Assembly (NCBI RefSeq): GCF_988243305.1
Contig: NZ_OZ547136.1
DNA length: 64,000 nucleotides
Reading direction: 5' to 3' (one strand)
Position 1 is the stretch's first letter; each line of letters starts with the position of its first letter. Positions 1-61,432 of this stretch are shown piece by piece. A program made the position numbers and the translations under genes. The notes below the pieces were generated by a model that had not been told where the DNA came from, ran no database searches, and saw only the letters and a list, made by a program, of their open reading frames with translations.

Positions 1-1730
1 AAAACAGTGACTCACCCTTTAAAGATGTTTTTTCTAATGCGCATGAAGTCACAGCAGAAACGAAAGAAAATCGAACAATATACACACAGGTATTTGAAAT
101 TGATAATGGCATCGAGAAAAGATGCATTAATCACTGGCATACATTATGCAATCTGCCAGCCAGCGATCATGCTGTTTATATTTGTGGTTGGCAAGATATT
201 ACCGAGACGCGTGATTTAATTCACGCTCTCGAAGTAGAGAGAAATAAAGCGATCAATGCAACTGTCGCAAAAAGTCAGTTTCTGGCAACAATGAGTCACG
301 AAATAAGAACACCAATAAGCTCCATTATGGGCTTCCTGGAACTTCTGTCGGGTTCTGGTCTTAGCAAGGAACAACGGGTGGAGGCGATTTCACTTGCCTA
401 CGCCACCGGACAATCACTCCTCGGCTTAATTGGTGAAATCCTTGATGTCGACAAAATTGAGTCGGGTAACTATCAACTTCAACCACAATGGGTCGATATC
501 CCTACTTTAGTCCAGAACACTTGTCACTCTTTCGGTGCGATTGCTGCAAGCAAATCGATCGCATTAAGTTGCAGCAGTACGTTTCCTGAACATTACCTGG
601 TTAAGATCGACCCTCAGGCGTTTAAGCAGGTCTTATCTAATTTACTGAGCAATGCTCTCAAATTTACCACCGAGGGGGCAGTAAAAATTACGACCTCCCT
701 GGTTAACATTGATGACAACCACGCTGTAATCAAAATGACGATTATGGATTCTGGAAGTGGATTATCACAGGAAGAACAACAACAACTGTTTAAACGCTAT
801 AGCCAAACAAGTGCAGGTCGTCAGCAAACAGGTTCTGGTTTAGGCTTAATGATCTGCAAAGAATTAATTAAAAACATGCAGGGCGATTTGTCATTAGAAA
901 GTCATCCAGGCATAGGAACGACATTTACGATCACAATCCCGGTAGAAATTACCCAACAAGTGGCGACTGTCGAGGCAAAAGCAGAACAACCCATGACACT
1001 CCCTGAAAAGTTGAGCATATTAATCGCGGATGATCATCCGACCAACAGGCTATTACTCAAACGCCAGCTAAACCTATTAGGATATGATGTTGATGAAGCA
1101 ACTGATGGTGTGCAAGCGCTACACAAAGTCAGTATGCAACATTATGATCTGCTTATTACTGACGTTAATATGCCGAATATGGATGGTTTTGAGTTGACTC
1201 GCAAACTCCGTGAGCAAAATTCTTCCTTACCCATCTGGGGGCTTACAGCCAACGCACAGGCTAACGAACGTGAAAAAGGGTTAAATTGCGGCATGAACTT
1301 ATGTTTGTTCAAACCGTTGACCCTGGATGTACTGAAAACACATTTAAGTCAGTTACACCAGGTTGCGCCTATTGCACCTCAGTATCGCCACCTTGATATC
1401 GAGGCCCTGAAAAATAATACGGCGAACGATCTACAACTGATGCAGGAGATTCTCATGACTTTCCAGCATGAAACGCATAAAGATCTACCCGCTGCGTTTC
1501 ATGCACTAGAAGCTGGCGACAACAGAACTTTCCATCAGTGTATTCATCGCATCCACGGTGCAGCTAACATCCTGAATTTGCAAAAGTTGATTAATCTTAG
1601 CCATCAGTTAGAAATAACACCTGTTTCAGATGACAGTAAGCCTGAAATTCTTCAGCTGCTGAACTCTGTTAAAGAACACATTGCAGAGCTGGACCAGGAG
1701 ATAGCTGTTTTCTGTCAACAAAATGACTAA
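1..1730 (+). CDS. evgS: Hybrid sensor histidine kinase EvgS, C-terminal part (5' end lies outside the window)
   Basis: Frame 0 is open from the window edge with no stop until 1728-1730. H-box motif ATMSHEIRTP near 285-315, followed by an ATPase region, a receiver domain (LIADDHPTNR...DVNMPNMDG) and a C-terminal HPt-like segment. Listed ORF 291-1730 is the Met-initiated tail of this longer frame. Confidence 0.9.
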   Translation, partial: NSDSPFKDVFSNAHEVTAETKENRTIYTQVFEIDNGIEKRCINHWHTLCNLPASDHAVYICGWQDITETRDLIHALEVERNKAINATVAKSQFLATMSHEIRTPISSIMGFLELLSGSGLSKEQRVEAISLAYATGQSLLGLIGEILDVDKIESGNYQLQPQWVDIPTLVQNTCHSFGAIAASKSIALSCSSTFPEHYLVKIDPQAFKQVLSNLLSNALKFTTEGAVKITTSLVNIDDNHAVIKMTIMDSGSGLSQEEQQQLFKRYSQTSAGRQQTGSGLGLMICKELIKNMQGDLSLESHPGIGTTFTITIPVEITQQVATVEAKAEQPMTLPEKLSILIADDHPTNRLLLKRQLNLLGYDVDEATDGVQALHKVSMQHYDLLITDVNMPNMDGFELTRKLREQNSSLPIWGLTANAQANEREKGLNCGMNLCLFKPLTLDVLKTHLSQLHQVAPIAPQYRHLDIEALKNNTANDLQLMQEILMTFQHETHKDLPAAFHALEAGDNRTFHQCIHRIHGAANILNLQKLINLSHQLEITPVSDDSKPEILQLLNSVKEHIAELDQEIAVFCQQND

Positions 1731-1736
1731 ATAGCG

Positions 1737-1763
1737 GCTCCCACAATATTCAAATGTGGGAGC
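1737..1763. terminator. Hairpin between convergent evgS and yfdE (GCTCCCACA-loop-TGTGGGAGC), likely bidirectional terminator
   Basis: Perfect 9 bp inverted repeat with 9 nt loop lying between the two convergent stop codons, flanked by A/T-rich sequence. Confidence 0.6.
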
Positions 1764-1785
1764 TATTTACCAGCACATCTTACAT

Positions 1786-2931
1786 TTATGATGAGAACTC
1801 CTGGCGAATTTGTTCCCCATGTTGGTCGAGCGTTGCCGCTCCCGGCATAACATGCGGGTCCGCGCAGCCGCTGATTTTTATCGGATTACCTGGCATCATT
1901 ATTCCCCCGGCTTCAATCAACATATTTCTCGCCTGAGTTTGTGGCAAATTAATGGCCTCAGCCACACTTAATAACGGCGCGACGGGCACACCAACTTCAT
2001 GTATTTTGGCTAACCAAACTTCAGCTGCCTGCGTTTTTAACGTTCGCTCAATATATTGTTTAAGAATAGCCTGGTTTTGTACGCGTAAAATATTGCTGCT
2101 AAATCGGGGATCATTAACCAGTTCCGTAAGCTCCAGTGCCTGGCATAACGCAGAAAAAAGCTTGTCATTACCACAACAAATAGTAATCGGCTTATCCTGA
2201 GTATCAAAAACATCAAAAGGTGCCATGTAGGGATGGCGATTTCCCAGGCGTTGTGGTGACTTCCCTGTCGCAATATATGCCATCAGACCATGCTCCAGAA
2301 AACTCAGCGTGGCATCAAACATCGCTATATCGACATGCGCCCCTCTCTGGCTCTTTTCGCGGCCATAAAGTGCACTCACTATTCCGCTGAATAAATAGAC
2401 ACCGCCACATAAATCCGCAAGAGAGGTACCCACGCGCACTGGCGGAGCATCAGGGTACCCTGTTTCCATCATTATCCCGCTCATTGCCTGAATGATGGTA
2501 TCGTAGGCTGGAGCATCTTTTAGCGGGCCGGTATGCCCAAAACCTGACGATGAAGCATATATGAGACGCGGGTTGATTTCTTGTAGCGTTTCCCATGAAA
2601 ACCCCAGTTTTTCCATTGTACCTGGGCGAAAATTCTCAGCTAATACATCAGCTTGTTTAAGCATATTTATAAATATACTTTTATCGTGATCATTCTTTAA
2701 ATCAAGAACCACACTCTCTTTGCCATGATTAATAAAACTGTAATAGAGTGACTGTCCATCCACATAGGGACCAAATGTGCGGGTATCATCACCATGACCC
2801 GGCGGCTCAACTTTAATTACCCTTGCGCCCATATTACAAAGAAGTTGAGTTCCGAAAGGTCCATTAAGGACATGTGTCATATCGATAACTAATAAGCCTT
2901 CAAACGGCCCTTTGCATTCATTATTTGTCAT
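1786..2931 (-). CDS. yfdE: Acetyl-CoA:oxalate CoA-transferase, family III CoA-transferase
   Basis: ORF 1786-2970; translation matches family III CoA-transferases (CaiB/BaiF-like). I prefer the ATG at 2931 (MTNNECKGPF...) over the upstream GTG at 2970. Confidence 0.85.
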   Translation of the reverse strand: MTNNECKGPFEGLLVIDMTHVLNGPFGTQLLCNMGARVIKVEPPGHGDDTRTFGPYVDGQSLYYSFINHGKESVVLDLKNDHDKSIFINMLKQADVLAENFRPGTMEKLGFSWETLQEINPRLIYASSSGFGHTGPLKDAPAYDTIIQAMSGIMMETGYPDAPPVRVGTSLADLCGGVYLFSGIVSALYGREKSQRGAHVDIAMFDATLSFLEHGLMAYIATGKSPQRLGNRHPYMAPFDVFDTQDKPITICCGNDKLFSALCQALELTELVNDPRFSSNILRVQNQAILKQYIERTLKTQAAEVWLAKIHEVGVPVAPLLSVAEAINLPQTQARNMLIEAGGIMMPGNPIKISGCADPHVMPGAATLDQHGEQIRQEFSS

Positions 2932-2945
2932 TTGCTTATGCCTTG

Positions 2946-2976
2946 AAAAAAGCCGAAGGTGAAAAGACACTTCGGC
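2946..2976 (-). terminator. Stem-loop plus U-tract between yfdV stop and yfdE start (intra-operon terminator or attenuator candidate)
   Basis: On the minus strand, GCCGAAG-loop-CTTCGGC is followed by TTTTTT. It sits between the yfdV stop (3005) and the yfdE start (2931). Confidence 0.5.
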
Positions 2977-3004
2977 ATTTATGTAAAATCAATAACATGA
3001 TTAA

Positions 3005-3949
3005 TTATGAAACCAGTCGACTGACATAAATCCACAAAGGAGCCGTGACGACAAAGCCCAGTACGCTCACAGCCAATGATGCTGTACCAGTGCGGGTGTA
3101 GACATTAAACCGGCTGGCAATAATGATTCCGGAGAATGCCGGCGGTAAGGCGCCTGCCAGTACCATCATCTGCAAATGTTCGCTGTTCAAATGACATGCC
3201 ATACCCACGAGAAGCAGCGCCAGTGGCATCAGAATCAGCTTCAGGAAGGTGTTATAAGCAATTTCAGCACTGAACTCGAATTTATGTGCAGCCAGAGTCA
3301 ACCCCGCAGCGAATACCGCTACCCCTGAGTTAGCCTTCGCAATCAGATTAAAGGTTGGGTCCCATGCTGCCGGAATTTTTACCCCAACCAACACCAGGAT
3401 CGTTGCCAGAACAGGTGCCCATACTACTGGCTCCTTTGCCGCAGAAATTAATGCGCTCAGATTACTATTCTTCTTACCATCTGCTCCTGAGGAAGGATTC
3501 AGCAAATACAGACCAATAGGAATAGTAATTGCGTTAACAATAATAGAAATAATTGCTACAACTAAACCTGTTGATACGGAATCACCATAAATAGGATCGA
3601 GAACTGCAAATCCCAGGAATCCGATGGTAGGTGAACCTGCAATTAATGCACATACTGCTGCTTCTGCATGAGTACGTTTAAAAAATTTGTAGCAACCAAA
3701 CCAGGAGAAAAAGAAACATCCGACAATAACCACAAGTGATACAAGGGTCAGGCGAGTGTCCGCAAAAATCATTTCCCTGTTTGCCCGGGTAATAGAAACA
3801 AATAGGGCCGCAGGAAGAGCGTAGTTTAATACCAGTTTATTAAATGCCCGGGCTTGATCTTCTGAAAAAGTTTCTCGTCTGCCGCTAAAATAACCCAACA
3901 GCATGATTACGATAATAGGCAATAAATCGCCAATAAAAAATGTTAGCAT
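3005..3949 (-). CDS. yfdV: AEC-family (auxin efflux carrier-like) membrane transporter, putative oxalate/formate-linked
   Basis: 314 aa polytopic hydrophobic ORF; sits in an operon between oxc and yfdE. Confidence 0.85.
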
Positions 3950-4017
3950 AATAGTATTTCCGATAAGGGTCCCCTCACCATCGATAATGAGTTGGCAAGA
4001 GGAGACGATGTCAGTAT

Positions 4018-5712
4018 TTAATTACCAGCGACTTGTTTTGGGTTAAGTTTGGTAATATGGCCACTTTCAGTTCCTGCTGCAGGGTCGATGACCACATTAA
4101 TAATGGTCGGTTTGCGCGACTGAATACCGGTGGTTAAAGCATGACGAAGTTCATCTGTCGTAGTGACGTTATAGCCAACGCCACGAAACGCATCCATTAA
4201 TTTGTCATACCTTGCATGGTGCAATAGATCTGTTGGTGATGGTGCACCAGCGCCACTGAGATCAACACCGTCTCCTCTGTAGATGCCGCCATTATTAAAA
4301 ATAACGATCGTCACCGGCAGGTTATATCGACAAATCGTTTCAATCTCCATCCCACTGAAACCAAAAGCACTATCACCTTCAATGGCGACAACCGGAGAAC
4401 CAGAGGTCACGCTAGCACCGATGGCATAGCCCATACCGATGCCCATGACACCCCAGGTACCACAATCCAGACGGCGACGTGGTTTATACATATCAATAAT
4501 ATTTCGTGCATTATCCAGGGTATTTGCACCTTCATTAACTAAATAAATATCCTGGTTCTCGCGCAATACATCGCGCACAGCACTTAATGCATTAAAGTAA
4601 TTTAATGGTTGAGTATCTGTACTTAATTTTTCATGCATTTTTTGTGCATTTTGCTGCTTGTGGATATTTAAAATATCGCGCCATACCAGTGGAGTCGTAA
4701 ATGTGTTTTGTTTCAGTTCTGCCAGCATACCTTGCATACTGGATGCAATATCGCCAACGACTGGCACAGCAATGGGGCGGTTGCTGTCAATTTCCTGCGG
4801 TTCAATATCCAGTTGAATAAACTGTGTATCTGCCGCCCATCCTTTTTTACCGTGTGCCAGTAACCAATTCAGTCGTGCACCAACAAGCATGACAACGTCA
4901 GCATTTGCCAGGGCAAACGAACGCGCAGTTGCCGCAGAAAGTGGATGTGTATCTTCGAGGATCCCTTTCGCCATAGACATTGGCAGGAATGGAATCTGGG
5001 CACTTTCAATAAATTCACGAAGCTGTTCATCCGCTTGTGAATACGCCGCGCCTTTGCCAAGGATAACTAATGGTCGTTCAGCTTTTGCTAAAAGCGAAAT
5101 TGCGCTAGTGACTGACTTCGGGCATGGCAATAATGCTGGCGACGGATTTTCAACTTTTACAATCGTGGTTAACGCTTCGTCTTTTTCCATCGTCGCGGCC
5201 AGGACATTTGCTGGTAAATCAAGATAAACTCCGCCAGGGCGACCCGATACTGAGACCCGGATAGCGCGTGCCAATGCAATGCCAAGATCCTGCGGCTGAT
5301 TAACGCGAAATGCTGCTTTGGCATACGGTTTTGCCGCATTCATTTGGTCCAGCTCTTCATAATCACCTTGCTGTAGGTCGACGATCGCGCGGTCGCTGGA
5401 GCCGCTAATCATGATCATCGGAAAACCATTTACCGTTGCGTTGGCCAATGCGGTCAAACCATTGAGGAATCCTGGCGCAGACACTGTCAGGCAGATCCCT
5501 GGTTTTTGGGTAAGAAAACCGCTTGCCGCAGCGGCATAGCCTGCCGACTGCTCATGACGAAAACCAATATAACGAATGCCTTCCGCCTGGGCATGGCGTG
5601 CCATATCCGTCACAGGAATACCTACAACACCATAAATAGTGTCAATATTATTCTGTTTTAATGCTTCAACGATGATATGCATACCATCTGTCATTTGAAG
5701 TTGATCTGACAT
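4018..5712 (-). CDS. oxc: Oxalyl-CoA decarboxylase (thiamine-diphosphate dependent)
   Basis: 564 aa ORF with ThDP-enzyme architecture including a [14 protein letters not shown]-type ThDP-binding motif. Confidence 0.9.
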
Positions 5713-5765
5713 GATTAATAACCTCGAAATTTTTATAAATTGGGAGCCAGAAGCCCCCGTTAATA

Positions 5766-7016
5766 TCAGATGGCGTGGTTTTGCTTCATTGCAGCAATTT
5801 CATCGTCGCTATAACCCAGCTCCTGCAATACCACAGCGGTATGTTCACCTAATAGCGGCGCAGCTTTAATATCCGGCGTAAAGGCAGAGAATTTCATTGG
5901 ACAACCAACTGTCAGATATTTTCCACGCAACGGTTGTTCCACTTCAACAACACTGCCACTTTGGCGCAAAGAGGGATCAAGTGAAATTTCTTTCATACTT
6001 AAAACCGGTGCACAAGGAATATCAAACTGAGTCAAATAGGCCACTGCTTCATGTTTATCAATAGTGACAGTGTATTTTTCGATTTCAGCAAAAATATCGA
6101 AAATATGTGGCTGTCGGGCATGGGCTGTACTGTATGCCGGATCGGTAATCCAATCTGGTTTGCCGATGGCTTTACAGGTGTTTTCCCAGTTTTGCTCCTG
6201 AATAGTGAAATAAATATAGGCATTAGGATCGGTTTCCCAGCCTTTACATTTCAGGATCCAGCCAGGCTGACCGCCACCACCCGCATTACCACCGCGGGGA
6301 ACTGCATCACCAAATGTGCCATTCGGATACTGCGGGTATTCTTCCAGATAACCCAATTTATCGAGACGCTGCTGGTCGCGTAATTTCACGCGGCAAAGGT
6401 TCAATACGGCATCCTGCATTGACATGGTGACTCGTTGCCCACGCCCCGTTTTTTCGCGATGCAGCAAAGCAGCAAGTAAACCGATCAGTAAATGCATTCC
6501 GGTGTTGCTGTCACCCAACGCTGCAGCGCTTACCAGCGGCGGACCGTCCCAAAACCCCGTAGTGGATGCCGCGCCACCCGCTGCCTGAGCAACGTTTTCA
6601 TAGGCTTTTACATTCACATAAGGCGAACACTCATCAAACCCTTTGATCGAACCAAAAATCAGACGTGGATTGATTTCTTGAATATGCTCCCAGGTGAAGC
6701 CCATGTGATCAATGGCCCCTGGATGAAAGTTCTCGACTAAGATATCAGCTTCGCGGATCAGCTTTTCCATTACCTCTTTGCCTTCCGCTGTTTTGGTATT
6801 TAATTCAATAGAACGTTTGTTACTGTTAAGCATGGTGAAGTAAAGCGCATCGATATCAGGAATATCTCGCAGCTGGTGACGCGTTACGTCACCAACGCCG
6901 GGACGTTCAATTTTAATGACGTCAGCGCCAAACCAGGCCAGCATTTGAGTACAAGATGGGCCAGATTGCACACCGGTGAAATCGAGAACTTTAATTCCTT
7001 GAAGTGGAGTTGACAT
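5766..7016 (-). CDS. frc: Formyl-CoA:oxalate CoA-transferase
   Basis: 416 aa family III CoA-transferase immediately upstream of oxc in the same orientation. Confidence 0.9.
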
Positions 7017-7267
7017 AGCAATACCTATTAGTTAATTAAATATATGTTAATTTAGCGTTTATTTAAGGCATAACGCCCTCTATAAATAATCCGCAAAATA
7101 TCGTCGTAGCTGCACTCGATATTTTTAAATTCCTGTATCAAGTGCTGAAAATCATTTCATCGCCACTTCCAATTCCTTTCTGCATGGTAAGTAGTGAGGA
7201 CGAAAAGAAGAATATGATAAATATTGGTTCGCGGTAATCAGAGAGAGCCGCGACATTTGTGATGTTA

Positions 7268-7285
7268 TTCTTACAACTGTAAGAA
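7268..7285. promoter_or_regulatory. EvgA-box-like inverted repeat TTCTTACA-AC-TGTAAGAA upstream of frc
   Basis: Perfect 8-2-8 palindrome matching the EvgA consensus (TTCPyTACA N2 TGTAPuGAA), about 250 bp upstream of the frc start. Confidence 0.6.
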
Positions 7286-7528
7286 GCGCCGGTGATTTAC
7301 AAGTAAGGGTATGATTACGCCTTTTAAAGCGTACCATAAAACATAACATAATAAATGATTTGTGATGACACGGGATTATTGCGGTTTACTTTGAGGAAGA
7401 TAAAATGCGAGTTTATAGAACCGCGAGCGCCAAATAATTTTATGACCACAACCTGTCGTATTGTGGTCATAAAAAATTGTCGGCTGGAGGGAGTTAAATC
7501 CTTTACCTCAATATACTGCCTGTCAGCG

Positions 7529-8161
7529 TTAGTTCACAAACAGTGCTTCGCTATCGACGATGATTCCATCTTCCGCACCTTTAAGCGCCAGGTTTGCCTC
7601 GTAGTATTGCTTTTTATCAAGCAGTTTCTGCGCATCAGCAAGTGCATTACGAGTCTGTTTGAGCGGCATCAGATATTGGTTTTCCATTACGCCAACACCG
7701 GCCAGGCGCAGCTCTTCCATTGCGCCCTTTTTATCCCCTTTCGCCATTTTTTCGTTGGCAATTTTTATCGCGGCTTCTTTTTCGGGTGTCGCTACATAAC
7801 TCTCAGAAATTCCGACAGATGCATTAATGACAATATATTGGTCATCATTGACATTGGTCTTTTTACCTGGCTTAGCGAACTTTGCCCATTCGGTACTGTC
7901 ATCTGACAACAAAGCTGAAGCTTCATTGGTCAGTTCTTTTGCCTTTTCCGGATCGCCATGAAACAGAGCCAAGCGCGCTACCTGCACGTCACGCATCGCA
8001 TATAAACCTTGTTCAGAGATACGCTCTGCTGCTGCCGTTTTCTGGGTTTGCTGAACTTGCTGAGTTTGCTGTTGTGCCGCTACCGGTGCATTATCAGCCG
8101 CCCATACAGTTGAAGATGCCAGAATTGCTGTGACCATCGTAGCCATAATTAAACGTTTCAT
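7529..8161 (-). CDS. yfdX: YfdX-family periplasmic protein (EvgA-induced)
   Basis: 210 aa ORF with an N-terminal signal peptide ([21 protein letters not shown]) and a Q-rich region. Confidence 0.8.
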
Positions 8162-8258
8162 ACTTACCTCATTCTTTAACAGTTTTAGAAAACGCCGCCA
8201 TCATATTGGGTGAGCATGAAATGAGAAATCAGAGAGCAACGGTCATTTTGAAAGGGTT

Positions 8259-8276
8259 ATCTTACAGTTGTAGTTA
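8259..8276. promoter_or_regulatory. EvgA-box-like site (TCTTACA-GT-TGTAGTTA) upstream of yfdX
   Basis: Imperfect 8-2-8 inverted repeat of the EvgA-box type in the yfdX-ypdI divergent intergenic region. Confidence 0.45.
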
Positions 8277-8296
8277 TTATCGCAAGAAGTATTTTA

Positions 8297-8314
8297 GTCT
8301 TACAATTGTAGGAA
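8297..8314. promoter_or_regulatory. EvgA-box-like site (GTCTTACA-AT-TGTAGGAA) upstream of yfdX
   Basis: Second near-consensus EvgA-type palindrome, about 140 bp upstream of the yfdX start. Confidence 0.5.
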
Positions 8315-8456
8315 TATGCTTCCTGTCACAGAGAACTATTCTTATATACCAAAAAGAGATGTCATTTATTATATCGATGTAAATACTGATTAATTATATG
8401 TAAATACAGCAATAACGTCGTAGGTTTTCAGTGAACCATTTTCAGGATAACTTTCT

Positions 8457-8732
8457 ATGAAAGTAAACTTAATGCTTTTTAGCTTATTTTTATTGGTCTC
8501 TATTATGGCATGCAATGTTTTTGCATTTTCTATTTCTGGTGGTGGTAGTGAGGCGAGCTATAAAGAGACGGAAAAAACGTCAGCGATGACGACAACTCAC
8601 TCTACAAAATTTCAGCCATCACAGGCGATTTTGTTAAAAATGAGAGAAGATGCGCCACCATTAAACCTCACAGAAGAAATTCCGCCCCCTTTTCCGACAA
8701 AGGCGAATTATCTTATCCATCCTGTGCGATAG
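8457..8732 (+). CDS. ypdI: Small putative lipoprotein YpdI
   Basis: 91 aa ORF; signal peptide ending in a lipobox-like ...IMAC. Confidence 0.7.
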   Translation: MKVNLMLFSLFLLVSIMACNVFAFSISGGGSEASYKETEKTSAMTTTHSTKFQPSQAILLKMREDAPPLNLTEEIPPPFPTKANYLIHPVR

Positions 8733-8808
8733 CGTCTGTCACACGGCAGGTGAACAATCATGTCTGATGCTGATGTGAACACCTGCCCAAATGAGCCATC
8801 CTGACCCA

Positions 8809-9051
8809 CTACCGCCTGCCATATCCCACCATAAAGCGAATCATCAAGCCACAAGCCGGGGCAAGAAACATAAATATCCCCGTCACCAGTTCATTACCGC
8901 CAGTTAACCACATGGTGAAGTAATAAATGAGTGCAGCGAGGATCACCATGCCGAAGAAAGAAGAGACCGCCGATACCACGTTCAGTACCTGACCGATGTA
9001 TCCGCTTACGCAGACAATACACAGGGCGAGAAACATCCATAAATAAATCAT
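8809..9051 (-). CDS. yfdY: Small inner-membrane protein YfdY
   Basis: 80 aa ORF with two predicted TM segments. Confidence 0.7.
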   Translation of the reverse strand: MIYLWMFLALCIVCVSGYIGQVLNVVSAVSSFFGMVILAALIYYFTMWLTGGNELVTGIFMFLAPACGLMIRFMVGYGRR

Positions 9052-9403
9052 AGCTCAACCTCCTGCCGCGCTAAAAAACCTGTAACTTCAGTCACTTTAA
9101 TAGTAAGACAATCCTTAACCTCTGGCAATTTTTGCTAAGCATCAATGAAAACAGCATGTTAAATGCAAGACTGTTGCGTACGGAAAAATATTTACTTTGC
9201 ACGATTAATAATCAGTAGCTGAAAGCAGTCAGCGAGTGATAAAGTACAGATACCGCATTCATGCTCCTCGTGGTTATGTCCTGACTAGTCTTTACACTCT
9301 TTACAGGAACCATTGTCGTACATGATGGCCTAATCAATTGAGTGTACCGCTGTCGACATGGAATCTTCTGCGATACAACAATTCGTATCTACAGAAGGTA
9401 ACT

Positions 9404-10324
9404 ATGTTTCCAAAATGCAAATTTTCCCGCGAGTTTCTGCATCCTCGCTACTGGCTCACGTGGTTTGGGCTTGGTGTACTCTGGCTTTGGGTACAGCTTC
9501 CTTATCCTGTTCTCTGCTTTCTCGGCACGCGTATTGGCGCAATGGCGCGACCATTCCTGAAACGGCGTGAATCTATCGCCCGTAAAAACCTGGAACTTTG
9601 TTTCCCACAGCATTCTGCGGAAGAACGCGAGAAGATGATTGCCGAAAACTTTCGTTCACTCGGCATGGCGCTGGTAGAAACCGGCATGGCGTGGTTCTGG
9701 CCCGACAGTCGCGTACGTAAATGGTTTGATGTTGAAGGGTTGGATAACCTTAAACGCGCACAAATGCAAAATCGCGGCGTAATGGTTGTCGGCGTCCATT
9801 TTATGTCGCTGGAACTGGGCGGCCGCGTGATGGGACTGTGCCAACCAATGATGGCTACCTATCGTCCACATAATAATCAGCTGATGGAATGGGTGCAGAC
9901 CCGTGGGCGCATGCGCTCTAACAAAGCGATGATCGGCAGAAATAATCTGCGCGGCATTGTCGGTGCACTGAAGAAAGGTGAAGCGGTATGGTTTGCTCCC
10001 GATCAGGATTATGGTCGTAAAGGCAGCTCCTTCGCGCCGTTCTTTGCGGTGGAAAATGTTGCCACAACCAATGGTACGTATGTCCTTTCACGTCTCTCTG
10101 GCGCAGCCATGTTAACCGTAACGATGGTAAGAAAAGCGGATTACAGCGGATATCGTTTGTACATCACCCCAGAGATGGAAGGCTACCCGGCAGATGAAAA
10201 TCAAGCCGCTGCCTATATGAACAAGATTATCGAAAAAGAGATCATGCGCGCACCGGAGCAGTACCTCTGGATCCACCGTCGCTTTAAAACGCGCCCGGTG
10301 GGAGAATCGTCGCTATACATTTAA
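9404..10324 (+). CDS. lpxP: Lipid A biosynthesis palmitoleoyl acyltransferase (cold-induced)
   Basis: ORF 9338-10324; I prefer the ATG at 9404 (MFPKCKFSREF...), preceded by AAGGT. LpxL/LpxP-family acyltransferase, 306 aa. Confidence 0.85.
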   Translation: MFPKCKFSREFLHPRYWLTWFGLGVLWLWVQLPYPVLCFLGTRIGAMARPFLKRRESIARKNLELCFPQHSAEEREKMIAENFRSLGMALVETGMAWFWPDSRVRKWFDVEGLDNLKRAQMQNRGVMVVGVHFMSLELGGRVMGLCQPMMATYRPHNNQLMEWVQTRGRMRSNKAMIGRNNLRGIVGALKKGEAVWFAPDQDYGRKGSSFAPFFAVENVATTNGTYVLSRLSGAAMLTVTMVRKADYSGYRLYITPEMEGYPADENQAAAYMNKIIEKEIMRAPEQYLWIHRRFKTRPVGESSLYI

Positions 10325-10679
10325 CAAACTGCTCTTACTCTTTCCCTCCTCAAATCAGCCATAATAACCTCATGGTTTTTATGGCTTTTTTCTTAAGGTT
10401 TTTTCCTTCGCTGAATCTCTAATTATTACCGTCAGAAATTAAACTGTCGCCGATATGAGACACCTGTAAGTTACTAAAAGTAAATAAGAAAATGCCTCTT
10501 GTCTCGTTTTAGTTTTAGGCGTACATTAGCGCCGTCTGGAGCAGTTTAGCTCAGAATTCTGGGGTGATGCCCACGGTAAAATACAGGACTTTTAAGGTCG
10601 TTTTGCCCGGTGTCAACTCACTGTATCAGGTGTAATGAAGTCATTCAGGCGTAACAGTAATTACGCGGAGAGATGTAAA

Positions 10680-10751
10680 GTGAAATATTTCTTTATGGGC
10701 ATTTCTTTTATGGTCATCGTTTGGGCCGGTACTTTTGCCCTGATGATCTAA
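10680..10751 (+). CDS. ypdK: Small hydrophobic protein (23 aa) YpdK-like
   Basis: GTG-initiated ORF V/M-KYFFMGISFMVIVWAGTFALMI with GGAGAG 7-8 nt upstream. Below the ORF-track cutoff; found by reading the lpxP-alaC intergenic region. Confidence 0.5.
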   Translation: MKYFFMGISFMVIVWAGTFALMI

Positions 10752-10815
10752 AAGCAAACTGTGCAATGAAAAACAGGAGCCATCTGGCTCCTGTTTGCAT
10801 TTCTGGCGATGGTGT

Positions 10816-12054
10816 TTATTCCGCGTTTTCGTGAATATGTTTGCTGCTGGCGGGTAGTAAACCGTCGGCACGGAACATCGCTTTAATTCCACGAATCGCC
10901 TGACGAATACGGTCGCGGTTTTCAATCAGTGCAAAGCGAACATGCGTGTCGCCGTAGTCGCCAAAGCCAATCCCCGGAGAGACACAGACCTTCGCTTCGT
11001 TCAGCAGCTTCTTGGCAAATTCCAGCGAGCCCATGGCAGCATACGGTTCCGGGATTTTCGCCCAGACATACATCGAAGCCTTCGGCATTTCGACCATCCA
11101 GCCCGCTTCATGCAGCCCTTTAACCAGTACATCACGGCGGCGTTTGTACTGTTCGGCAATATCGCGCACGCACTGTTGATCGCCCTCCAGCGCCGCAATC
11201 GCTGCCACCTGCAACGGCGTAAAGGTGCCGTAATCGTGATAGCTTTTAATACGTGCCAGCGCGCTGACCAGCGTTTTGTTGCCAACCATAAAGCCGATAC
11301 GCCAGCCCGCCATGTTGTAGCTTTTCGACAGCGTAAAGAACTCGACCGCCACATCGCGTGCACCCGGCACCTGCATGATTGACGGCGCTTTCCAGCCATC
11401 GTAGACGATATCGGCATAGGCCAGGTCATGGACCACCAGCACATCGTAGCGTTTCGCCAGCGCCACAACCTTCTCAAAGAATTCCAGTTCCACGCATTGC
11501 GCGGTTGGGTTCGACGGGAAGCCGAGGATCATCATCTTCGGTTTCGGATAACTTTCGCGAATGGCGCGTTCCAGTTCGTTGAAGAAATCGACACCTTCCA
11601 CCAGCGGCACTGAGCGTACCTGCGCCCCGGCAATCACCGCGCCGTAAATATGAATCGGGTAGCTTGGATTAGGCACCAGTACAGTGTCACCATGATCCAG
11701 CGTCGCCAGCATCAGATGCGCCAGTCCCTCTTTCGAACCAATGGTGACGATAGCTTCTGATTCCGGGTCGATCTCGACGTCGTAGCGATCCTGATACCAG
11801 TGTGAAATGGCGCGACGTAGCCGCGGAATGCCGCGTGAAGTGGAGTAACCATGCGTGTCCGGGCGCTGGGCCACCGTACATAATTTTTCGACGATGTGCG
11901 GCGGAGTCGCACCGTCCGGGTTACCCATACTGAAATCGATAATATCTTCGCCGCGCCGACGCGCAGCCATTTTCAGTTCAGCGGTAATATTAAAAACGTA
12001 GGGCGGGAGACGATCAATGCGCGTAAAGCGACGTTCAGGGCGAGTGTCAGCCAT
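10816..12054 (-). CDS. alaC: Glutamate-pyruvate aminotransferase (PLP-dependent, class I/II)
   Basis: 412 aa ORF with aminotransferase fold motifs (...[12 protein letters not shown]...). Confidence 0.9.
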
Positions 12055-12430
12055 AATTTCCTCAGATTAACGTTAGCGCCCGGACCGTCCGAGCGACGCT
12101 GCCACGATGGTGGCTGTTTTGAAAATAGCCTGATTAATTTCTGTCTGTCCAGCGTTTTAGAACATTTTTATCAATGGCTTTAAATGAGGAACGCCACTTC
12201 AAAAACAGGAAATTTATCTGCGCTAACAAGAAAATTACCACTCATTTTATTAACATTATAATTTCAATAAATTTACCAAGCAGATGTGCATTATCAAGAG
12301 ATGCATTGCTAATACACCATTTATCTTTCAATCCCCTTTTAAAATTGTGGTTTTTCCTCAAAAACGGCCTGCTGGTCATCAGCCTTCAGGTTACCTATCA
12401 TAGAGGTTTAATCCTTATTCAGAGTCACCC

Positions 12431-14128
12431 GTGCACGAAATATTCAACATGCTGCTGGCGGTCTTCGATCGGGCAGCGTTAATGCTTATCTGCCTGTTCT
12501 TTCTCATCCGTATCCGCCTGTTTCGCGAACTGTTGCACAAGTCGGCGCACTCCCCAAAAGAGCTGCTCGCTGTTACCGCCATTTTCTCGCTGTTCGCCCT
12601 GTTCAGCACCTGGTCCGGCGTTCCCGTAGAAGGCTCGCTAGTGAACGTTCGTATTATCGCGGTGATGTCAGGCGGGATTCTGTTTGGCCCGTGGGTAGGC
12701 ATCATTACCGGCGTGATTGCGGGTATTCACCGGTATTTAATTGATATCGGCGGCGTGACGGCGATCCCCTGCTTTATCACCAGCATTCTGGCGGGTTGTA
12801 TATCGGGCTGGATCAACCTGAAAATCCCCAAAGCACAGCGCTGGCGCGTCGGTATTCTCGGCGGCATGTTATGTGAAACGTTGACCATGATTCTGGTGAT
12901 TGTCTGGGCACCAACTACCGCGTTGGGGATCGATATCGTCTCTAAAATCGGCATTCCGATGATCCTCGGTAGCGTCTGTATCGGCTTTATTGTGCTGCTG
13001 GTGCAAAGCGTTGAGGGCGAAAAAGAGGCCAGCGCCGCGCGGCAGGCCAAGCTGGCGCTGGATATCGCCAACAAAACGCTGCCGCTGTTTCGCCATGTCA
13101 ATAGCGAGTCATTACGCAAAGTTTGTGAAATTATCCGCGATGATATTCACGCCGATGCGGTGGCGATTACTAATACCGATCATGTGCTGGCCTATGTCGG
13201 CGTGGGCGAACACAACTATCAGAATGGCGATGACTTCATTAGCCCGACTACCCGACAGGCGATGAATTACGGAAAAATCATCATTAAAAACAATGATGAA
13301 GCCCACCGCACACCAGAGATTCATTCCATGCTGGTGATCCCATTGTGGGAGAAAGGCGTTGTGACCGGAACGCTGAAAATTTACTACTGCCACGCGCATC
13401 AGATCACTTCCTCATTACAGGAAATGGCGGTCGGTCTGTCGCAAATCATCTCCACGCAACTGGAGGTTTCACGCGCCGAGCAGCTACGTGAAATGGCAAA
13501 TAAGGCAGAGCTTCGCGCCCTGCAAAGCAAAATTAATCCCCATTTCCTGTTTAACGCTTTGAACGCTATTTCATCGTCAATCCGTCTGAATCCGGATACC
13601 GCTCGCCAGCTGATCTTTAATCTGTCGCGTTATCTGCGCTATAACATTGAATTAAAAGACGATGAGCAAATCGATATCAAAAAAGAGCTGTATCAAATTA
13701 AAGACTATATTGCCATTGAGCAGGCCCGCTTTGGCGACAAGCTGACGGTTATCTATGATATTGATGAAGAGGTGAATTGCTGCATTCCCAGCCTGCTGAT
13801 CCAGCCGTTGGTGGAAAACGCCATTGTCCACGGTATCCAGCCTTGCAAAGGTAAAGGCGTTGTCACCATCAGCGTTGCAGAGTGCGGTAATCGGGTACGT
13901 ATTGCGGTGCGAGATACCGGGCACGGCATCGATCCAAAGGTGATTGAGCGGGTCGAAGCGAACGAAATGCCGGGCAATAAAATTGGCCTGCTGAATGTCC
14001 ATCATCGCGTGAAGTTATTGTATGGCGAGGGGCTGCATATCCGCCGCCTGGAACCGGGGACGGAAATTGCGTTTTACATTCCTAACCAACGCACCCCAGT
14101 CGCCTCACAGGCTACGTTATTGCTTTGA
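12431..14128 (+). CDS. ypdA: LytS-type sensor histidine kinase (pyruvate-responsive YpdA)
   Basis: 565 aa, GTG start; N-terminal multi-TM 5TMR-LYT domain, GAF-like region, His-kinase core. Confidence 0.85.
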
Positions 14129-14889: not shown

Positions 14890-15747
14890 ATGAAAGCACC
14901 AGGCTTGCCCGCCGATCAACAATTTTTCGCCGATCTGTTCAGCGGCCTGGTGCTTAACCCGCAACTACTGGGGCGCGTCTGGTTTGCCAGCCAGCCTGCC
15001 TCGTTACCGGTGGGCAGTTTATGTATTGATTTTCCCCGTCTGGATATCGTGCTGCGCGGCGAATACGGCAATCTGCTGGAAGCAAAGCAGCAACGTATGG
15101 TTGAAGGAGAAATGCTGTTTATTCCAGCGCGCGCGGCTAATTTACCGATCAACAACAAACCGGTGATGCTGTTAAGCCTGGTGTTCGCACCGACCTGGCT
15201 TGGGTTATCGTTTTACGATAGCCGTACCACGTCGTTGTTGCATCCTGCTCGCCAGATCCAGCTTCCCAGCCTGCAACGCGGCGAAGGTGAAGCAATGCTT
15301 ACTGCCCTCACCCATCTTAGCCGTTCGCCGCTGGAGCAGAATATCATTCAGCCGCTGGTGTTAAGTTTGCTGCATCTTTGCCGCAACGTGGTGAATATGC
15401 CGCCGGGTAATTCGCAGCCGCGCGGCGATTTTCTTTATCACAGCATTTGTAACTGGGTTCAGGATAATTATGCCCAGCCGCTCACCCGTGAGAGCGTGGC
15501 GCTGTTTTTTAATATCACGCCCAATCATCTGTCAAAACTGTTTGCGCAGCATGGAACAATGCGTTTTATCGAATATGTGCGTTGGGTGCGAATGGCGAAG
15601 GCGAGGATGATTTTGCAGAAATATCATCTGTCGATTCATGAAGTGGCGCAGCGTTGCGGCTTTCCGGACAGCGACTATTTTTGTCGCGTCTTCCGGCGTC
15701 AGTTTGGTCTGACGCCGGGAGAGTACAGCGCCCGCTTTCAGGGCTAA
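14890..15747 (+). CDS. ypdC: AraC-family transcriptional regulator
   Basis: 285 aa with a C-terminal AraC-type HTH. Confidence 0.8.
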   Translation: MKAPGLPADQQFFADLFSGLVLNPQLLGRVWFASQPASLPVGSLCIDFPRLDIVLRGEYGNLLEAKQQRMVEGEMLFIPARAANLPINNKPVMLLSLVFAPTWLGLSFYDSRTTSLLHPARQIQLPSLQRGEGEAMLTALTHLSRSPLEQNIIQPLVLSLLHLCRNVVNMPPGNSQPRGDFLYHSICNWVQDNYAQPLTRESVALFFNITPNHLSKLFAQHGTMRFIEYVRWVRMAKARMILQKYHLSIHEVAQRCGFPDSDYFCRVFRRQFGLTPGEYSARFQG

Positions 15748-15749
15748 CT

Positions 15750-18245
15750 TCAGAAGGTTAATTCCGTTTCCAGCAGCGTCAGGATGCTTTGCGCATCTTG
15801 CGCGGCGAACAGCGACTGGCGGAAGTTTTTATTCACCAGTTTACGCGCCAGCTGCGAGAAGACTTTCACATGATTCATCCCTTCGTTAGCGCCCAGTGTC
15901 AGCATGATCACCAGTTCGACTTCGCCCATTTCTGACTGCCAGTCAACCGGTTTCACTAGCCGGGCAATGCTGATACTGGAATGACGGATCCACTGAGATT
16001 TGGTGTGCGGGATCGCTACGCCAAAACCAACGCCTGTGGTAACAATCTCTTCCCGCTGCCAGACATCCTCTTCCAGCTCGAACGGATGTTCAGTGCGCCC
16101 GTTAACGCCGAGGTTACCGCACAGGAACTGGATCGCCTGCTCTTTATTGCTAAAGGACTGATCAACAAAGATATTCTCCAGCGCCAGCAGTGGGCGAACG
16201 TCTTCTTCCGGCGTAAAGGCGGTGAGTAACGCTTCAATTTCCTGCGCGCTGCGGCATTCACATGCCTGACGCGCCAGTTCCCGACACGCCTCGCTATCCA
16301 GTTGACGAAGCTGGCTTTTCACCGCCGGAATGCGCGGGCTACTCATACTTAACTCGTCCAGGCCCAGCCCAAGCAGTAGCGGCAGATAACGGCTTTCACC
16401 GCCCAGTTCACCGCAAATGCCTACCCATTTACCCCGCTGATGCGCAGTGGTAATAATCTGCTGCAACATGCGCAGGAACGATGGCGTAATCGGGTTATAC
16501 AGCGGCGATACGCGCGGGTTATTACGATCGACCGCATACAGATACTGGGTCATATCGTTAGAACCGATACTGAAGAAATCTACCTCATCGCAAAAGTGAT
16601 CGATGATGTAGCACACCGACGGCACTTCCACCATGATACCCAGCGTAATCGTCTCTGCATGACGCAGGCCATCGCGCTTAAGCTCAACGATCGCTTTTTG
16701 GATCTCGCCCTTCACCCATAAGATCTGATCGAGGCTGTGAACCATTGGGATCATCAACTGGGCGTTGCCGAAACTGGCGGCGCGCAAAATGGCCCGCAGT
16801 TGAGTGCGGAACAGGCCAGCAAATTCCGGGTAAATTCGTACCGCACGATAGCCGAGGAACGGGTTCTCTTCCTGGGGAATATTCAGATAAGGAATGCTTT
16901 TATCGCCGCCGATGTCCATTGTGCGGAAGATAATCGGCTTGTCGCCCGCTGCCAGTAGCACCTGCTGGTAGGCTTCAAATTGCTCCTGCTCGTCCGGCGC
17001 GCTGTCGCGATCCATATAGAGCATTTCAGTACGGAACAGCCCGACGCCTTCCGCGCCGTTGGCAAACGCGCCAGGCGCTTCCAGAGCGGTGCCAATATTC
17101 GCCGCGATATCAATACGCTTGTTATCACGGGAATAAGCCAGCTGCGCGGCAGCCTGCGCCTGCTGCTGCTGACGTTTATCTGCCAGCGTCTGCGCAACCT
17201 GATAATAACCGCTCACCGCGTCATCAGGATTAATCGCCAGCACGCCGCACTGGGCGTCAAGCACCGCCGGTTGCCCGGCATAACGCGCGATCGCATCCTG
17301 CGGCAAGCCACTCAGTACCGGGATCGCCGAGGCACGGGCCAGAATCAGGGTATGCGAGGTGCGCCCGGTTTTCTCCAGAATCATGCCCGCAAGATTTTTT
17401 AAATCGAGGCTCAAAAACTGGCTTGGGGTTAAATCCTCGGCCACCAGAATAGTCGGTTTTTCCAGCACCAGATTGTTGCGCGGCTTCAGTTCCGGCCAGG
17501 TGATATGCAGCAACTGTTCGCTGATATCGCGAATGTCGCTGACCCGCTCGCGCAGATAATCGCTGGCAGAAGCAGATAGTTTGGCGCAAACCTGCTCCAT
17601 ATTGCTGATGATCGCCGCCCCCAGTCCCTGATGCTGTTCTGCCATAAGGCGACGGATATTGCCTGCAAATTCATCATCCTGAATCAGCGACAAATGGGCG
17701 CTGAGGATAGTTTTGCTTTCGCCGTCACGCTCACGCAGCTGCTGGTTCAGTTGCTCGGCAAGCGTTGCCAGGCTGTGCTCCAGCCGGGTGGAGTCTTGCG
17801 CACTGGCAGGGATTACCCGATAACTATCGAGGCTGTCGCTCTGTAACAGGGTCAGCGTACCCACGCCGACGCCGCTTGCCAGCACATTGCCGTACAGTAA
17901 ATCAGGATTCAGACGGCTTAATGAACGCGGCAGCGGATGCGCCGTCAGTTCTGCCTGTGTTGGCTGGATGCTGTCGCTGTCGATAAAGCGCACCTGGATG
18001 TACTCTTCCAGCACGCGCCGCGCCTGCTCTTCATCGCTGCCGCTAATGTTCAGGCTGCAACTGTCATTAAATAAAGTGCCGGTGCCAATCAGCGCCAGCG
18101 AACTTTTCGCATCGGCCTTTGCGTTCTGGCGATGGTTGATGAAGGTGATTTCGCTTTGCCACTGGCTGCACTGTTCTTTAAGTTCCCACGCCGGACGAGC
18201 ATGCAGACCGTTTGGCAAAGGACAGAGAAATTGAATCGTTAACAT
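15750..18245 (-). CDS. fryA: PTS multiphosphoryl transfer protein (fused HPr-like, Enzyme I-like and EIIA-Fru-like domains)
   Basis: 831 aa ORF; the central region is Enzyme I-like (PEP-utilising enzyme) with HPr-like and EIIA-like modules. Confidence 0.9.
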   Translation of the reverse strand: MLTIQFLCPLPNGLHARPAWELKEQCSQWQSEITFINHRQNAKADAKSSLALIGTGTLFNDSCSLNISGSDEEQARRVLEEYIQVRFIDSDSIQPTQAELTAHPLPRSLSRLNPDLLYGNVLASGVGVGTLTLLQSDSLDSYRVIPASAQDSTRLEHSLATLAEQLNQQLRERDGESKTILSAHLSLIQDDEFAGNIRRLMAEQHQGLGAAIISNMEQVCAKLSASASDYLRERVSDIRDISEQLLHITWPELKPRNNLVLEKPTILVAEDLTPSQFLSLDLKNLAGMILEKTGRTSHTLILARASAIPVLSGLPQDAIARYAGQPAVLDAQCGVLAINPDDAVSGYYQVAQTLADKRQQQQAQAAAQLAYSRDNKRIDIAANIGTALEAPGAFANGAEGVGLFRTEMLYMDRDSAPDEQEQFEAYQQVLLAAGDKPIIFRTMDIGGDKSIPYLNIPQEENPFLGYRAVRIYPEFAGLFRTQLRAILRAASFGNAQLMIPMVHSLDQILWVKGEIQKAIVELKRDGLRHAETITLGIMVEVPSVCYIIDHFCDEVDFFSIGSNDMTQYLYAVDRNNPRVSPLYNPITPSFLRMLQQIITTAHQRGKWVGICGELGGESRYLPLLLGLGLDELSMSSPRIPAVKSQLRQLDSEACRELARQACECRSAQEIEALLTAFTPEEDVRPLLALENIFVDQSFSNKEQAIQFLCGNLGVNGRTEHPFELEEDVWQREEIVTTGVGFGVAIPHTKSQWIRHSSISIARLVKPVDWQSEMGEVELVIMLTLGANEGMNHVKVFSQLARKLVNKNFRQSLFAAQDAQSILTLLETELTF

Positions 18246-18269
18246 AACCGCTCCGGGTTAATCAGGAGA

Positions 18270-20392: not shown

Positions 20393-20406
20393 CTGGATTT
20401 TCCTTC

Positions 20407-51745: not shown

Positions 51746-51768
51746 GATCTCTATCCATACGTGGTGTT

Positions 51769-51804
51769 GCCTGATGCGACGCTTGCGCGTCTTATCAGGC
51801 CTAC
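51769..51804. repeat. REP element (GCCTGATGCGACGCTTGCGCGTCTTATCAGGCCTAC) between cysA and cysM
   Basis: Canonical REP palindrome in the cysA-cysM intercistronic gap. Confidence 0.8.
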
Positions 51805-58701: not shown

Positions 58702-60126
<1,425 letters not shown>

Positions 60127-60130
60127 TAAT

Positions 60131-61432
60131 ATGAAACGGACAATGCTCTATCTTTCTCTGCTGGCTGTCAGCTGTAGCGTCAGCGCCGCAAAATACCCTG
60201 TTCTGACAGAAAGTTCGCCAGAGAAAGCAAGGTTCAACGTCGAACGGCTTAACCAGATGGATCGCTGGATTAGCCAGCAAGTGGACGCCGGTTATCCCGG
60301 CGTAAACCTGCTGATTATAAAAGATAATCAGATTGTGTATCGCAAAGCCTGGGGAGCGGCGAAAAAGTACGATGGCAGCGTATTGATGGAACAGCCTGTC
60401 AAAGCCACCACCGGGACGCTGTATGACCTGGCTTCCAATACCAAGATGTACGCCACTAACTTTGCTCTGCAAAAGCTAATGAGCGAAGGCAAGCTGCATC
60501 CTGACGATCGGATTGCGAAATATATTCCGGGATTTGCCGATAGTCCAAATGACACCATCAAAGGCAAAAACACGCTGCGGATTTCTGACCTGCTGCATCA
60601 CAGCGGCGGTTTCCCGGCAGATCCGCAATACCCGAATAAAGCGGTCGCGGGCGCGTTATATTCCCAGGATAAAGGCCAGACGCTGGAGATGATCAAGCGC
60701 ACGCCGCTGGAGTATCAGCCCGGCAGCAAGCATATCTACAGCGATGTCGATTATATGCTGCTTGGATTTATCGTCGAGTCGGTTACCGGTCAGCCACTTG
60801 ACCGCTATGTTGAAGAGTCGATTTATCGCCCGCTCGGCCTGACGCATACGGTGTTTAATCCGCTACTGAAAGGCTTTAAACCGCAACAAATTGCCGCCAC
60901 GGAACTCAACGGCAATACCCGCGATGGCGTGATCCATTTCCCGAATATCCGCACCTCCACTCTCTGGGGTCAGGTGCACGATGAAAAAGCCTTTTATTCG
61001 ATGGGCGGCGTTTCCGGGCACGCAGGTTTGTTTTCCAATACCGGCGATATTGCGGTGTTAATGCAAACGATGCTGAACGGCGGCGGCTATGGCGATGTGC
61101 AGCTGTTCAGTGCGGAAACGGTGAAGATGTTCACCACCAGCTCTAAGGAAGATGCCACTTTTGGCCTCGGCTGGCGCGTGAATGGTAATGCCACTATGAC
61201 GCCGACGTTTGGCACGCTGGCAAGCCCGCAAACCTACGGTCACACTGGCTGGACCGGGACGGTGACCGTTATCGATCCGGTGAATCATATGGCGATTGTG
61301 ATGTTAAGCAATAAGCCGCATTCGCCAGTAGCCGATCCGCAAAAGAATCCCAATATGTTCGAAAGCGGTCAGTTGCCGATTGCAACTTATGGTTGGGTGG
61401 TTGATCAGGTGTATGCGGCGTTAAAGCAGTAA
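60131..61432 (+). CDS. yfeW: Serine beta-lactamase-like / penicillin-binding protein family protein (PBP4B-like)
   Basis: ORF 60044-61432; I prefer the ATG at 60131 (MKRTMLYLSLLAVS...). Signal peptide and SxxK-type motif (SNTK). Confidence 0.85.
   Translation: MKRTMLYLSLLAVSCSVSAAKYPVLTESSPEKARFNVERLNQMDRWISQQVDAGYPGVNLLIIKDNQIVYRKAWGAAKKYDGSVLMEQPVKATTGTLYDLASNTKMYATNFALQKLMSEGKLHPDDRIAKYIPGFADSPNDTIKGKNTLRISDLLHHSGGFPADPQYPNKAVAGALYSQDKGQTLEMIKRTPLEYQPGSKHIYSDVDYMLLGFIVESVTGQPLDRYVEESIYRPLGLTHTVFNPLLKGFKPQQIAATELNGNTRDGVIHFPNIRTSTLWGQVHDEKAFYSMGGVSGHAGLFSNTGDIAVLMQTMLNGGGYGDVQLFSAETVKMFTTSSKEDATFGLGWRVNGNATMTPTFGTLASPQTYGHTGWTGTVTVIDPVNHMAIVMLSNKPHSPVADPQKNPNMFESGQLPIATYGWVVDQVYAALKQ

Follow-up and report, generated by a model that had tools for sequence, protein, structure and literature searches.

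The 64,000-nucleotide stretch of DNA analysed here, hereafter the window (NCBI RefSeq assembly GCF_988243305.1, contig NZ_OZ547136.1), opens within evgS and runs through the block of yfdE, yfdV, oxc, frc, yfdX, ypdI and yfdY at 1786-9060 to lpxP and alaC (Table 1). Its first 12.5 kb are E. coli chromosome, with strain K_EC180 as the top match (99.6%) and K-12-type strains at 97.6%, and this 12.5-kb query, comprising the block and its flanks, was found at a coverage of at least 80% in 5388 of 5426 complete E. coli genomes. The locus is the known evgAS-emrKY/yfdXWUVE locus of the EvgA regulon of E. coli. It has the same gene order and EvgA boxes as K-12, at 97-99% nucleotide identity (96.9-98.8% per gene, with full-length, intact open reading frames, ORFs), and differs in that the strain is not K-12, that yfdX is one codon shorter (633 nt instead of 636 nt) and that ypdI is only 94% identical to the K-12 copy. 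Gene calls were made by transferring the RefSeq annotation of matching E. coli loci to window coordinates; this annotation, together with the Pfam families where there was a match, bore out all of the gene names given in a preliminary description of this DNA. That description had read 1786-9060 as a horizontally acquired acid-resistance island controlled by an adjacent evgS of ordinary composition. We found that the AT-rich stretch is real and was wrongly bounded, and that it forms part of a nine-gene cassette to which evgAS itself belongs.

Table 1 Genes and other features in the first part of the window
Feature	Position	Strand	Description
evgS, 3' 1.7 kb	1-1730	+	acid-sensing hybrid histidine kinase; 96.9% nt identity to K-12 evgS; GC 0.427, GC3 0.409
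yfdE	1786-2931	-	acetyl-CoA:oxalate CoA-transferase; Pfam CoA_transf_3 E=2e-114; GC3 0.402; annotated as CoA:oxalate CoA-transferase
yfdV	3005-3949	-	putative transporter, Mem_trans/AEC family; Pfam PF03547 E=2.4e-80; GC3 0.404
oxc (yfdU)	4018-5712	-	oxalyl-CoA decarboxylase; three TPP-enzyme domains PF02776/PF00205/PF02775; GC3 0.394
frc (yfdW)	5766-7016	-	formyl-CoA:oxalate CoA-transferase; Pfam CoA_transf_3 (PF02515) E=4.9e-93; GC3 0.433
EvgA box upstream of frc	7268-7285		perfect 18-bp palindrome TTCTTACAACTGTAAGAA, 0 mismatches; equivalent site in K-12 and Yersinia
Terminator-like hairpin downstream of yfdX	7438-7474	-	15-pair stem followed by TTATTTGG; consensus match only
yfdX	7529-8161	-	periplasmic YfdX-family protein; Pfam PF10938 E=2.2e-44; GC3 0.429
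EvgA box upstream of yfdX	8259-8276		consensus match, 3 mismatches
EvgA box upstream of yfdX	8297-8314		consensus match, 1 mismatch
ypdI	8457-8732	+	small lipoprotein gene; GC3 0.363; no Pfam match
Right junction of the low-GC domain	8733-8808		76-bp spacer between the convergent ypdI and yfdY; GC3 0.363 to 0.600
yfdY	8809-9051	-	DUF2545; GC3 0.600
lpxP	9404-10324	+
ypdK			listed between lpxP and alaC
alaC	10816-12054	-
nt, nucleotide; GC3, GC content at third codon positions; CoA, coenzyme A; TPP, thiamine pyrophosphate.

The GC content of 1786-9060 was 0.446, compared with 0.515 for 9061-64000 and 0.505 for the whole window, and the stretch ranked within the lowest 16 of 568 equal-size windows. 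Coding sequences differed in the same way (0.459 in the block vs 0.526). GC content at third codon positions (GC3) was 0.36-0.43 in yfdE, yfdV, oxc, frc, yfdX and ypdI, the mean of 42 background genes being 0.578 (standard deviation, sd, 0.067), and the seven genes of the block, that is, these six and yfdY, were separated from the background by a Mann-Whitney test (p=0.0009). The codon-usage distance B to the background pool was higher (0.449 vs 0.330, p=0.0075), and the local codon adaptation index (CAI), which is approximate as its weights were taken from the ptsHI-crr-cysK-gltX genes of the window, was lower (0.495 vs 0.566, p=0.027). The dinucleotide signature distance of 59.1 exceeded even the maximum of the equal-sized-chunk null (52.4; 34.6±7.5). 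By GC3, B and CAI the block can thus be told from its right flank. The long AT run that had been quoted in its support is present at 2672-2706, within yfdE. The intergenic region 7017-7528, also quoted as AT-rich, does have a GC content of 0.369, but is ordinary among the spacers of the window, lying about 1.2 sd under the others (0.436±0.058, lowest 0.319). An Rfam scan of 1-12500 (E<=0.1), which included this 512-bp frc/yfdX spacer, returned no RNA family.

The excess of A and T that had been claimed against both flanks holds on the lpxP-alaC side and fails on the evgS side, where 1-1785 has a GC content of 0.426, below that of the block. We read the 15 kb to the left of the window from a K-12-type locus, in which GC3 was 0.371 for full-length evgS, 0.422 for evgA, 0.375 for emrK and 0.418 for emrY, and went back up to 0.48-0.53 in dsdCXA to the left of emrY; on the right flank (yfdY, lpxP and alaC) it was 0.54-0.62. 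Unsupervised entropy segmentation by GC set boundaries at -5569, which is the dsdA/emrY junction, at 330 and at 10840, and none near 1786. The boundary at 330, within evgS, is a minor step from 0.401 on its left to 0.447 on its right. AT content is higher in emrKY, evgA and the part of evgS that encodes its N-terminal sensor half than in the rest of evgS, which encodes the C-terminal half, and in the yfd genes.

To the right, comparative analyses were anchored on the backbone gene alaC in 80 species-level loci with 10-kb flanks, a sample that is without Salmonella and other Escherichia species, and in which the contig of E. albertii ends, uninformatively, 53 bp past alaC. Among these 80 loci, ypdI, yfdX, frc, oxc, yfdV and yfdE stood beside alaC-lpxP in E. 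coli only, and none of the 78 non-E. coli loci that extend beyond alaC had the cassette in this neighbourhood. Citrobacter retains alaC-lpxP-yfdY (yfdY 61-75% identical) and no further shared genes; the two genomes cease to be homologous at the nucleotide level at about 8814-8825, just within the stop-codon end of yfdY, beyond which Citrobacter carries a pair of genes for an extracytoplasmic function (ECF) sigma factor and its anti-sigma factor, followed in our list by genes for a lipoprotein, for a GGDEF protein and for a regulator of the AraC type. The flank beyond yfdY differs from genus to genus. Because composition and synteny agree here, the right junction is placed in the ypdI/yfdY spacer, and yfdY is conserved backbone outside the acquired block. 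The low-GC domain is thus very probably about 14 kb long, comprising emrY-emrK-evgA-evgS-yfdE-yfdV-oxc-frc-yfdX with ypdI at its edge, and 1786-9060 corresponds roughly to its right-hand two thirds. Of the limits given in the preliminary description, the low-GC run from yfdE through ypdI stands, and both ends have to be moved, the left one because low GC continues to dsdA/emrY and the right one because yfdY is backbone.

No tblastn match to ypdI was obtained in any non-E. coli locus, and the cassettes seen in other genera lack this gene. Of low GC and an orphan, it alone looks like a later local addition. The surrounding region (8162-8830, 669 bp) is highly polymorphic, with less than 95% identity in 1424 of 5422 E. 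coli genomes; the whole 12.5 kb fell below 95% in 1 genome only. YpdI of the window and that of the GTDB representative of E. coli share 71% amino acid identity.

Outside E. coli, the genes of the low-GC domain were found together at unrelated sites. Identity of YfdE is at least 98% within E. coli/Shigella and then drops to 89% in a Yersinia frederiksenii/alsatica cluster, to 79% in Winslowiella, 77% in Klebsiella-labelled sequences, 72-74% in Providencia/Morganella and 66-71% in Burkholderiales. In Yersinia, arsRBC is followed by yfdX-frc-oxc-yfdV-yfdE-evgS-evgA-emrK-emrY and then by unrelated genes; this cassette is colinear with that of E. coli at 80.9% nucleotide identity, and its GC3 is 0.33-0.42 vs 0.47-0.56 for the ars genes. 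Winslowiella has the nine genes in the same order between hdeD-hdeA and slp, and a metagenomic contig (L094) has a fragment of an IS3-type transposase gene, the nine genes and then slp. In all three, yfdX stands at the end of the cassette. The real unit is therefore the nine-gene cassette from yfdX to emrY, which coincides with the low-GC domain of E. coli except for ypdI, and its assembly must have preceded its arrival in E. coli, since the same order recurs in three other lineages. Nine-gene colinearity in Yersinia, Winslowiella and, in truncated form, on a conjugative plasmid is not stated in the literature that we searched.

Carriage on plasmids was also observed. The 378-kb conjugative IncFIB plasmid of Klebsiella variicola KV1 (NZ_CP103421.1; L096, 9700-24900) bears a seven-gene remnant bracketed by insertion sequences (IS), in the order IS1-IS3-IS5, yfdX through evgA with the first 80 codons of emrK, and an IS6 that truncates emrK; this stretch is 99.8% identical to the metagenomic contig. 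An E. coli plasmid, pCP131-IncFIB (L095, 5446-10016), has a divergent evgA and a C-terminally truncated evgS between two IS1 copies; the 262 bp matched by the window show 92% nucleotide identity to it. In complete E. coli genomes, 22 plasmid places match the 12.5-kb query. One candidate was discarded: NZ_CP070008.1 (L097; FDAARGOS_1288 "plasmid unnamed1", 81% Frc) carries the chromosomal ypdE-ptsP-ypdABC-alaC-lpxP-yfdY-ypdI-yfdX with a fragmented evgS. It is a linear 198-kb record and probably mis-assembled or mislabelled; other records of the plasmid collection, 1.4-4.9 Mb in length (H42-H45), are chromosome-sized. Because evgAS travels with yfdE-yfdX in Yersinia, Winslowiella, the metagenomic contig and the KV1 plasmid, the regulator belongs to the cargo that was acquired along with the yfd genes and is not an ancestral neighbour, and the view of evgS as a GC-normal gene next to the block that it regulates has to be given up.

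The core frc-oxc-yfdV-yfdE also occurs without evgAS in other contexts, in Klebsiella sp. BIGb0407, in an enterobacterium (L085) and in Providencia rettgeri. In L085, an EvgA-type box with 1 mismatch precedes frc (5700-5717), and no evgAS lies within 10 kb. Four kilobases downstream (15080-18766), the same locus has a very AT-rich AraC gene with a pair of genes whose products resemble EmrK and EmrY (49% and 70% identity; GC3 0.24-0.35). Insertions also differ between near-identical E. coli strains: an IS200 lies between yfeD and gltX in the window (31725-32183), and in K_EC180 an IS200C is located inside the cassette, between yfdE and yfdV (L002, 5055-5513), with evgA frameshifted.

The regulatory sites support the assignment of the cassette to EvgA. 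Scanning the 64-kb window with the EvgA consensus TTCYTACANNTGTARGAA gave 3 matches vs 0.44 expected, all of them in the two promoter regions of the block. These boxes recur in K-12, where the emrK-evgA spacer holds one more. In Yersinia, boxes precede frc and also lie in the evgA-emrK spacer. With up to 2 mismatches allowed, none was detected in the diverged copies of Winslowiella and L094. The hairpin between yfdX and frc is consistent with separate transcripts for yfdX and frc-oxc-yfdV-yfdE, as predicted from the sequence; consensus scans for promoters and terminators gave no enrichment over shuffles. In K-12, yfdXWUVE is activated by EvgA, inverted repeats bound by EvgA lie upstream of yfdX and yfdW, transcription is acid- and EvgA-dependent, YfdW and YfdU are required for oxalate-induced acid tolerance, and the function of YfdE has been demonstrated (PMC3720670). 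Transferring these K-12 steps, from EvgS to Frc, to the window on the strength of its 97-99% nucleotide identity, mild acidity would be sensed by EvgS, leading to phosphorylation of EvgA, which would bind the 18-bp palindromes upstream of yfdX, frc and emrK/evgA and switch on transcription. YfdE would then prime the cycle by forming oxalyl-CoA from acetyl-CoA and oxalate; Oxc would convert it, with loss of CO2, to formyl-CoA, and a proton is proposed to be taken up in this decarboxylation; and Frc would move the CoA to a new oxalate with release of formate. YfdV may serve as the oxalate/formate exchanger.

All these results point to nine genes forming a self-regulated acid-stress and efflux cassette that was horizontally acquired before E. 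coli diversified and was not ameliorated to the composition of its host, a reading to which we give a probability of roughly 0.8. The case is made by composition, absence from the syntenic site in other species, differing insertion contexts and carriage on plasmids with IS elements. Protein identity between E. coli and Yersinia is 92.5% for the four core proteins and 85.1% for the other five; with Winslowiella it is 84.1% and 64.5%, and with the K. variicola type 81.5% and 62.8%. Winslowiella and the metagenomic contig share 88.4% (core) and 77.3% (other five), and between the two lineages identities reach only 80-84% and 63-64%. The backbone protein AlaC is about 91% identical in Yersiniaceae and Erwiniaceae alike, and YpdA is 74% identical in Yersiniaceae vs 77-80% in Erwiniaceae. 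Since these two proteins do not place Yersiniaceae nearer to E. coli than Erwiniaceae, the pairing of the E. coli and Yersinia cassettes is incongruent with host taxonomy, as judged from pairwise identities. The low GC content of evgAS, its lack in close relatives and its binding by H-NS have been described before, and evgAS has been called foreign DNA (PMC7641745). The persistent AT-richness may be explained by a low-GC source together with retention as an H-NS-silenced locus that would be switched on by EvgA.

Several observations weigh against acquisition. No tRNA gene was found in the 79 kb around the block (the window and 15 kb to its left), and no integrase, transposase or other mobility gene between dsdA and lpxP; a search for repeats pairing the dsdA/emrY and ypdI/yfdY junctions gave short chance matches only. 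The 80.9% nucleotide identity of the cassette between E. coli and Yersinia is close to that of lysS (79.5%), a housekeeping gene located next to the cassette in Yersinia, and divergence alone is therefore compatible with ancient vertical descent accompanied by many losses; a recent transfer, which the 80.9% might have suggested, was dropped on account of this lysS control. GC3 is host-like (0.47-0.64) in the Winslowiella and K. variicola plasmid copies, and the cassette genes of Providencia match their AT-rich host in GC, so low GC is no inherent property of these genes. The sample that shows the absence of the cassette is one without other Escherichia species and with an E. albertii contig that ends at alaC. 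The acquired island under EvgA control that had been proposed thus stands as far as composition, syntenic absence, occurrence at other sites and on a plasmid, and EvgA boxes are concerned, and does not stand as a classical island: without tRNA, integrase or repeats, and fixed in the species, it is better described as an old, domesticated acquisition.

The strongest competing explanation, which we regard as unlikely, is that the region is native and ancient, dates from early Enterobacterales, was repeatedly lost or relocated, and keeps its low GC under selection, for example through H-NS-dependent silencing or low expression. The lysS-like divergence, the lack of mobility hallmarks at the E. 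coli locus, the near-universal presence in E. coli and the host-following GC in Winslowiella and Providencia would all fit. However, the cassette would have to have disappeared from nearly all 78 loci sampled in other species and to occupy a different site in each lineage that carries it; similarity ranks conflict with family relationships, IS elements on a conjugative plasmid demonstrably carry the cassette, and GC3 and the dinucleotide signature are both outliers. Less probable still is a mosaic built within E. coli, with emrKY-evgAS, frc-oxc-yfdV-yfdE, yfdX and ypdI arriving as separate insertions at a recombination hot spot. Such an origin would account for the sub-boundary within evgS, for the core found alone in Klebsiella sp. 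BIGb0407, L085 and Providencia, for the restriction of ypdI to E. coli and for the accessory nature of the DNA to the left of emrY as well (dsdCXA and the CPS-53 prophage), but the nine-gene order is identical in three other lineages and the pairwise matrix points to one shared topology. That a discrete yfdE-yfdY island came to lie beside a native, GC-normal evgS and was later captured by this neighbouring two-component system is hardly tenable: the block is indeed AT-rich relative to its right flank, has EvgA boxes, and its four-gene core occurs without evgAS in some taxa, but evgS, evgA and emrKY exceed the block in AT content, composition shows no boundary at 1786, evgAS co-travels with yfdE-yfdX in the four settings described above, yfdY adjoins lpxP in Citrobacter and has normal GC3, and evgAS has itself been described as foreign (PMC7641745).

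The acquired nine-gene cassette was then compared with known systems. The acid fitness island of E. coli comprises slp-dctR-yhiD-hdeBA-hdeD-gadE-mdtEF-gadWX-gadA and is under the EvgA-YdeO-GadE cascade. It resembles the evg-yfd cassette in being an acid-resistance cluster that is partly of low GC (GC3 0.36-0.40 for gadE, hdeAB and gadX), and homologues of slp and hdeA/hdeD directly flank the cassette in Winslowiella and the metagenomic contig; the island adjoins arsRBC in E. coli, as the cassette does in Yersinia. It differs in being a separate locus in E. coli. Derivation of the two from one ancestral island can be suggested only tentatively: Slp, HdeA and HdeD of Winslowiella are only 32-45% identical to the proteins of the E. 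coli acid fitness island. A broader scenario is doubtful, though slightly less so than native descent: the cassette would be a mobile unit circulating among families of Enterobacterales via IS elements on conjugative plasmids, with an AT-rich E. coli/Yersinia lineage from a low-GC donor and a GC-neutral Winslowiella/K. variicola lineage, and the evg-yfd and slp-gadA loci might be split remnants of one super-island.

With type II oxalate degradation in Oxalobacter formigenes (Frc, Oxc and OxlT), the module shares the chemistry of the Frc CoA-transferase and the thiamine diphosphate (ThDP)-dependent Oxc, but it has YfdV and an extra priming transferase, YfdE, and serves acid tolerance instead of energy metabolism (PMC3720670). 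No antiporter of the OxlT type, a member of the major facilitator superfamily (MFS), is present in the E. coli module, in which YfdV (Mem_trans, PF03547) is the sole transporter. In Klebsiella pneumoniae, kvhAS, the orthologue of evgAS, is clustered with yfdX and hdeDB (kvhAS-hdeB1) and involved in acid survival; in contrast to the present cassette, no frc-oxc-yfdV-yfdE has been described there, and regulation is exerted by RcsB (PMC6394985). Classical tRNA-associated islands are alike in atypical composition, patchy distribution and adaptive cargo, whereas the E. coli cassette is without tRNA target, integrase, direct repeats or instability and has become fixed in the species (about 99% of E. 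coli genomes).

Elsewhere in the window, segmentation delimited two GC-rich segments, ptsP-ypdE-ypdF-fryC (16181-21010, GC 0.566) and cysM-cysA-cysW-cysT (50841-54590, GC 0.574), the GC3 of cysW being 0.739. Low GC3 outside the block was seen in a small DUF1427 ORF between xapR and xapB (35641-35799, 0.346) and in yfeN (38250-39014, 0.469), which has just 95.3% nucleotide identity to the closest strain; the xapA/yfeN spacer has a GC content of 0.319. In the murP-yfeX interval (60131-61432, 1.36 kb) there is an intact ORF (60044..61432 when counted from an upstream ATG) that appears, judging by its translation, to be similar to beta-lactamases/penicillin-binding proteins (PBP) and is presumably yfeW/pbp4B; at this place K_EC180 has just about 180 bp, with a pseudogene remnant.

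The locus is among the best-studied stress regulons of E. coli; in substance, its AT-rich stretch is already published, and no new biology is added here. The colinear recurrence of the cassette across genera and on a plasmid is a modest extension and not a new kind of system. What changes is the history of the regulator: a foreign regulator arrived together with part of its own regulon. The comparison of the cassettes of Yersinia and Winslowiella with the seven-gene remnant on the Klebsiella plasmid offers a testable picture of how an acid-resistance regulon spreads among enterics.

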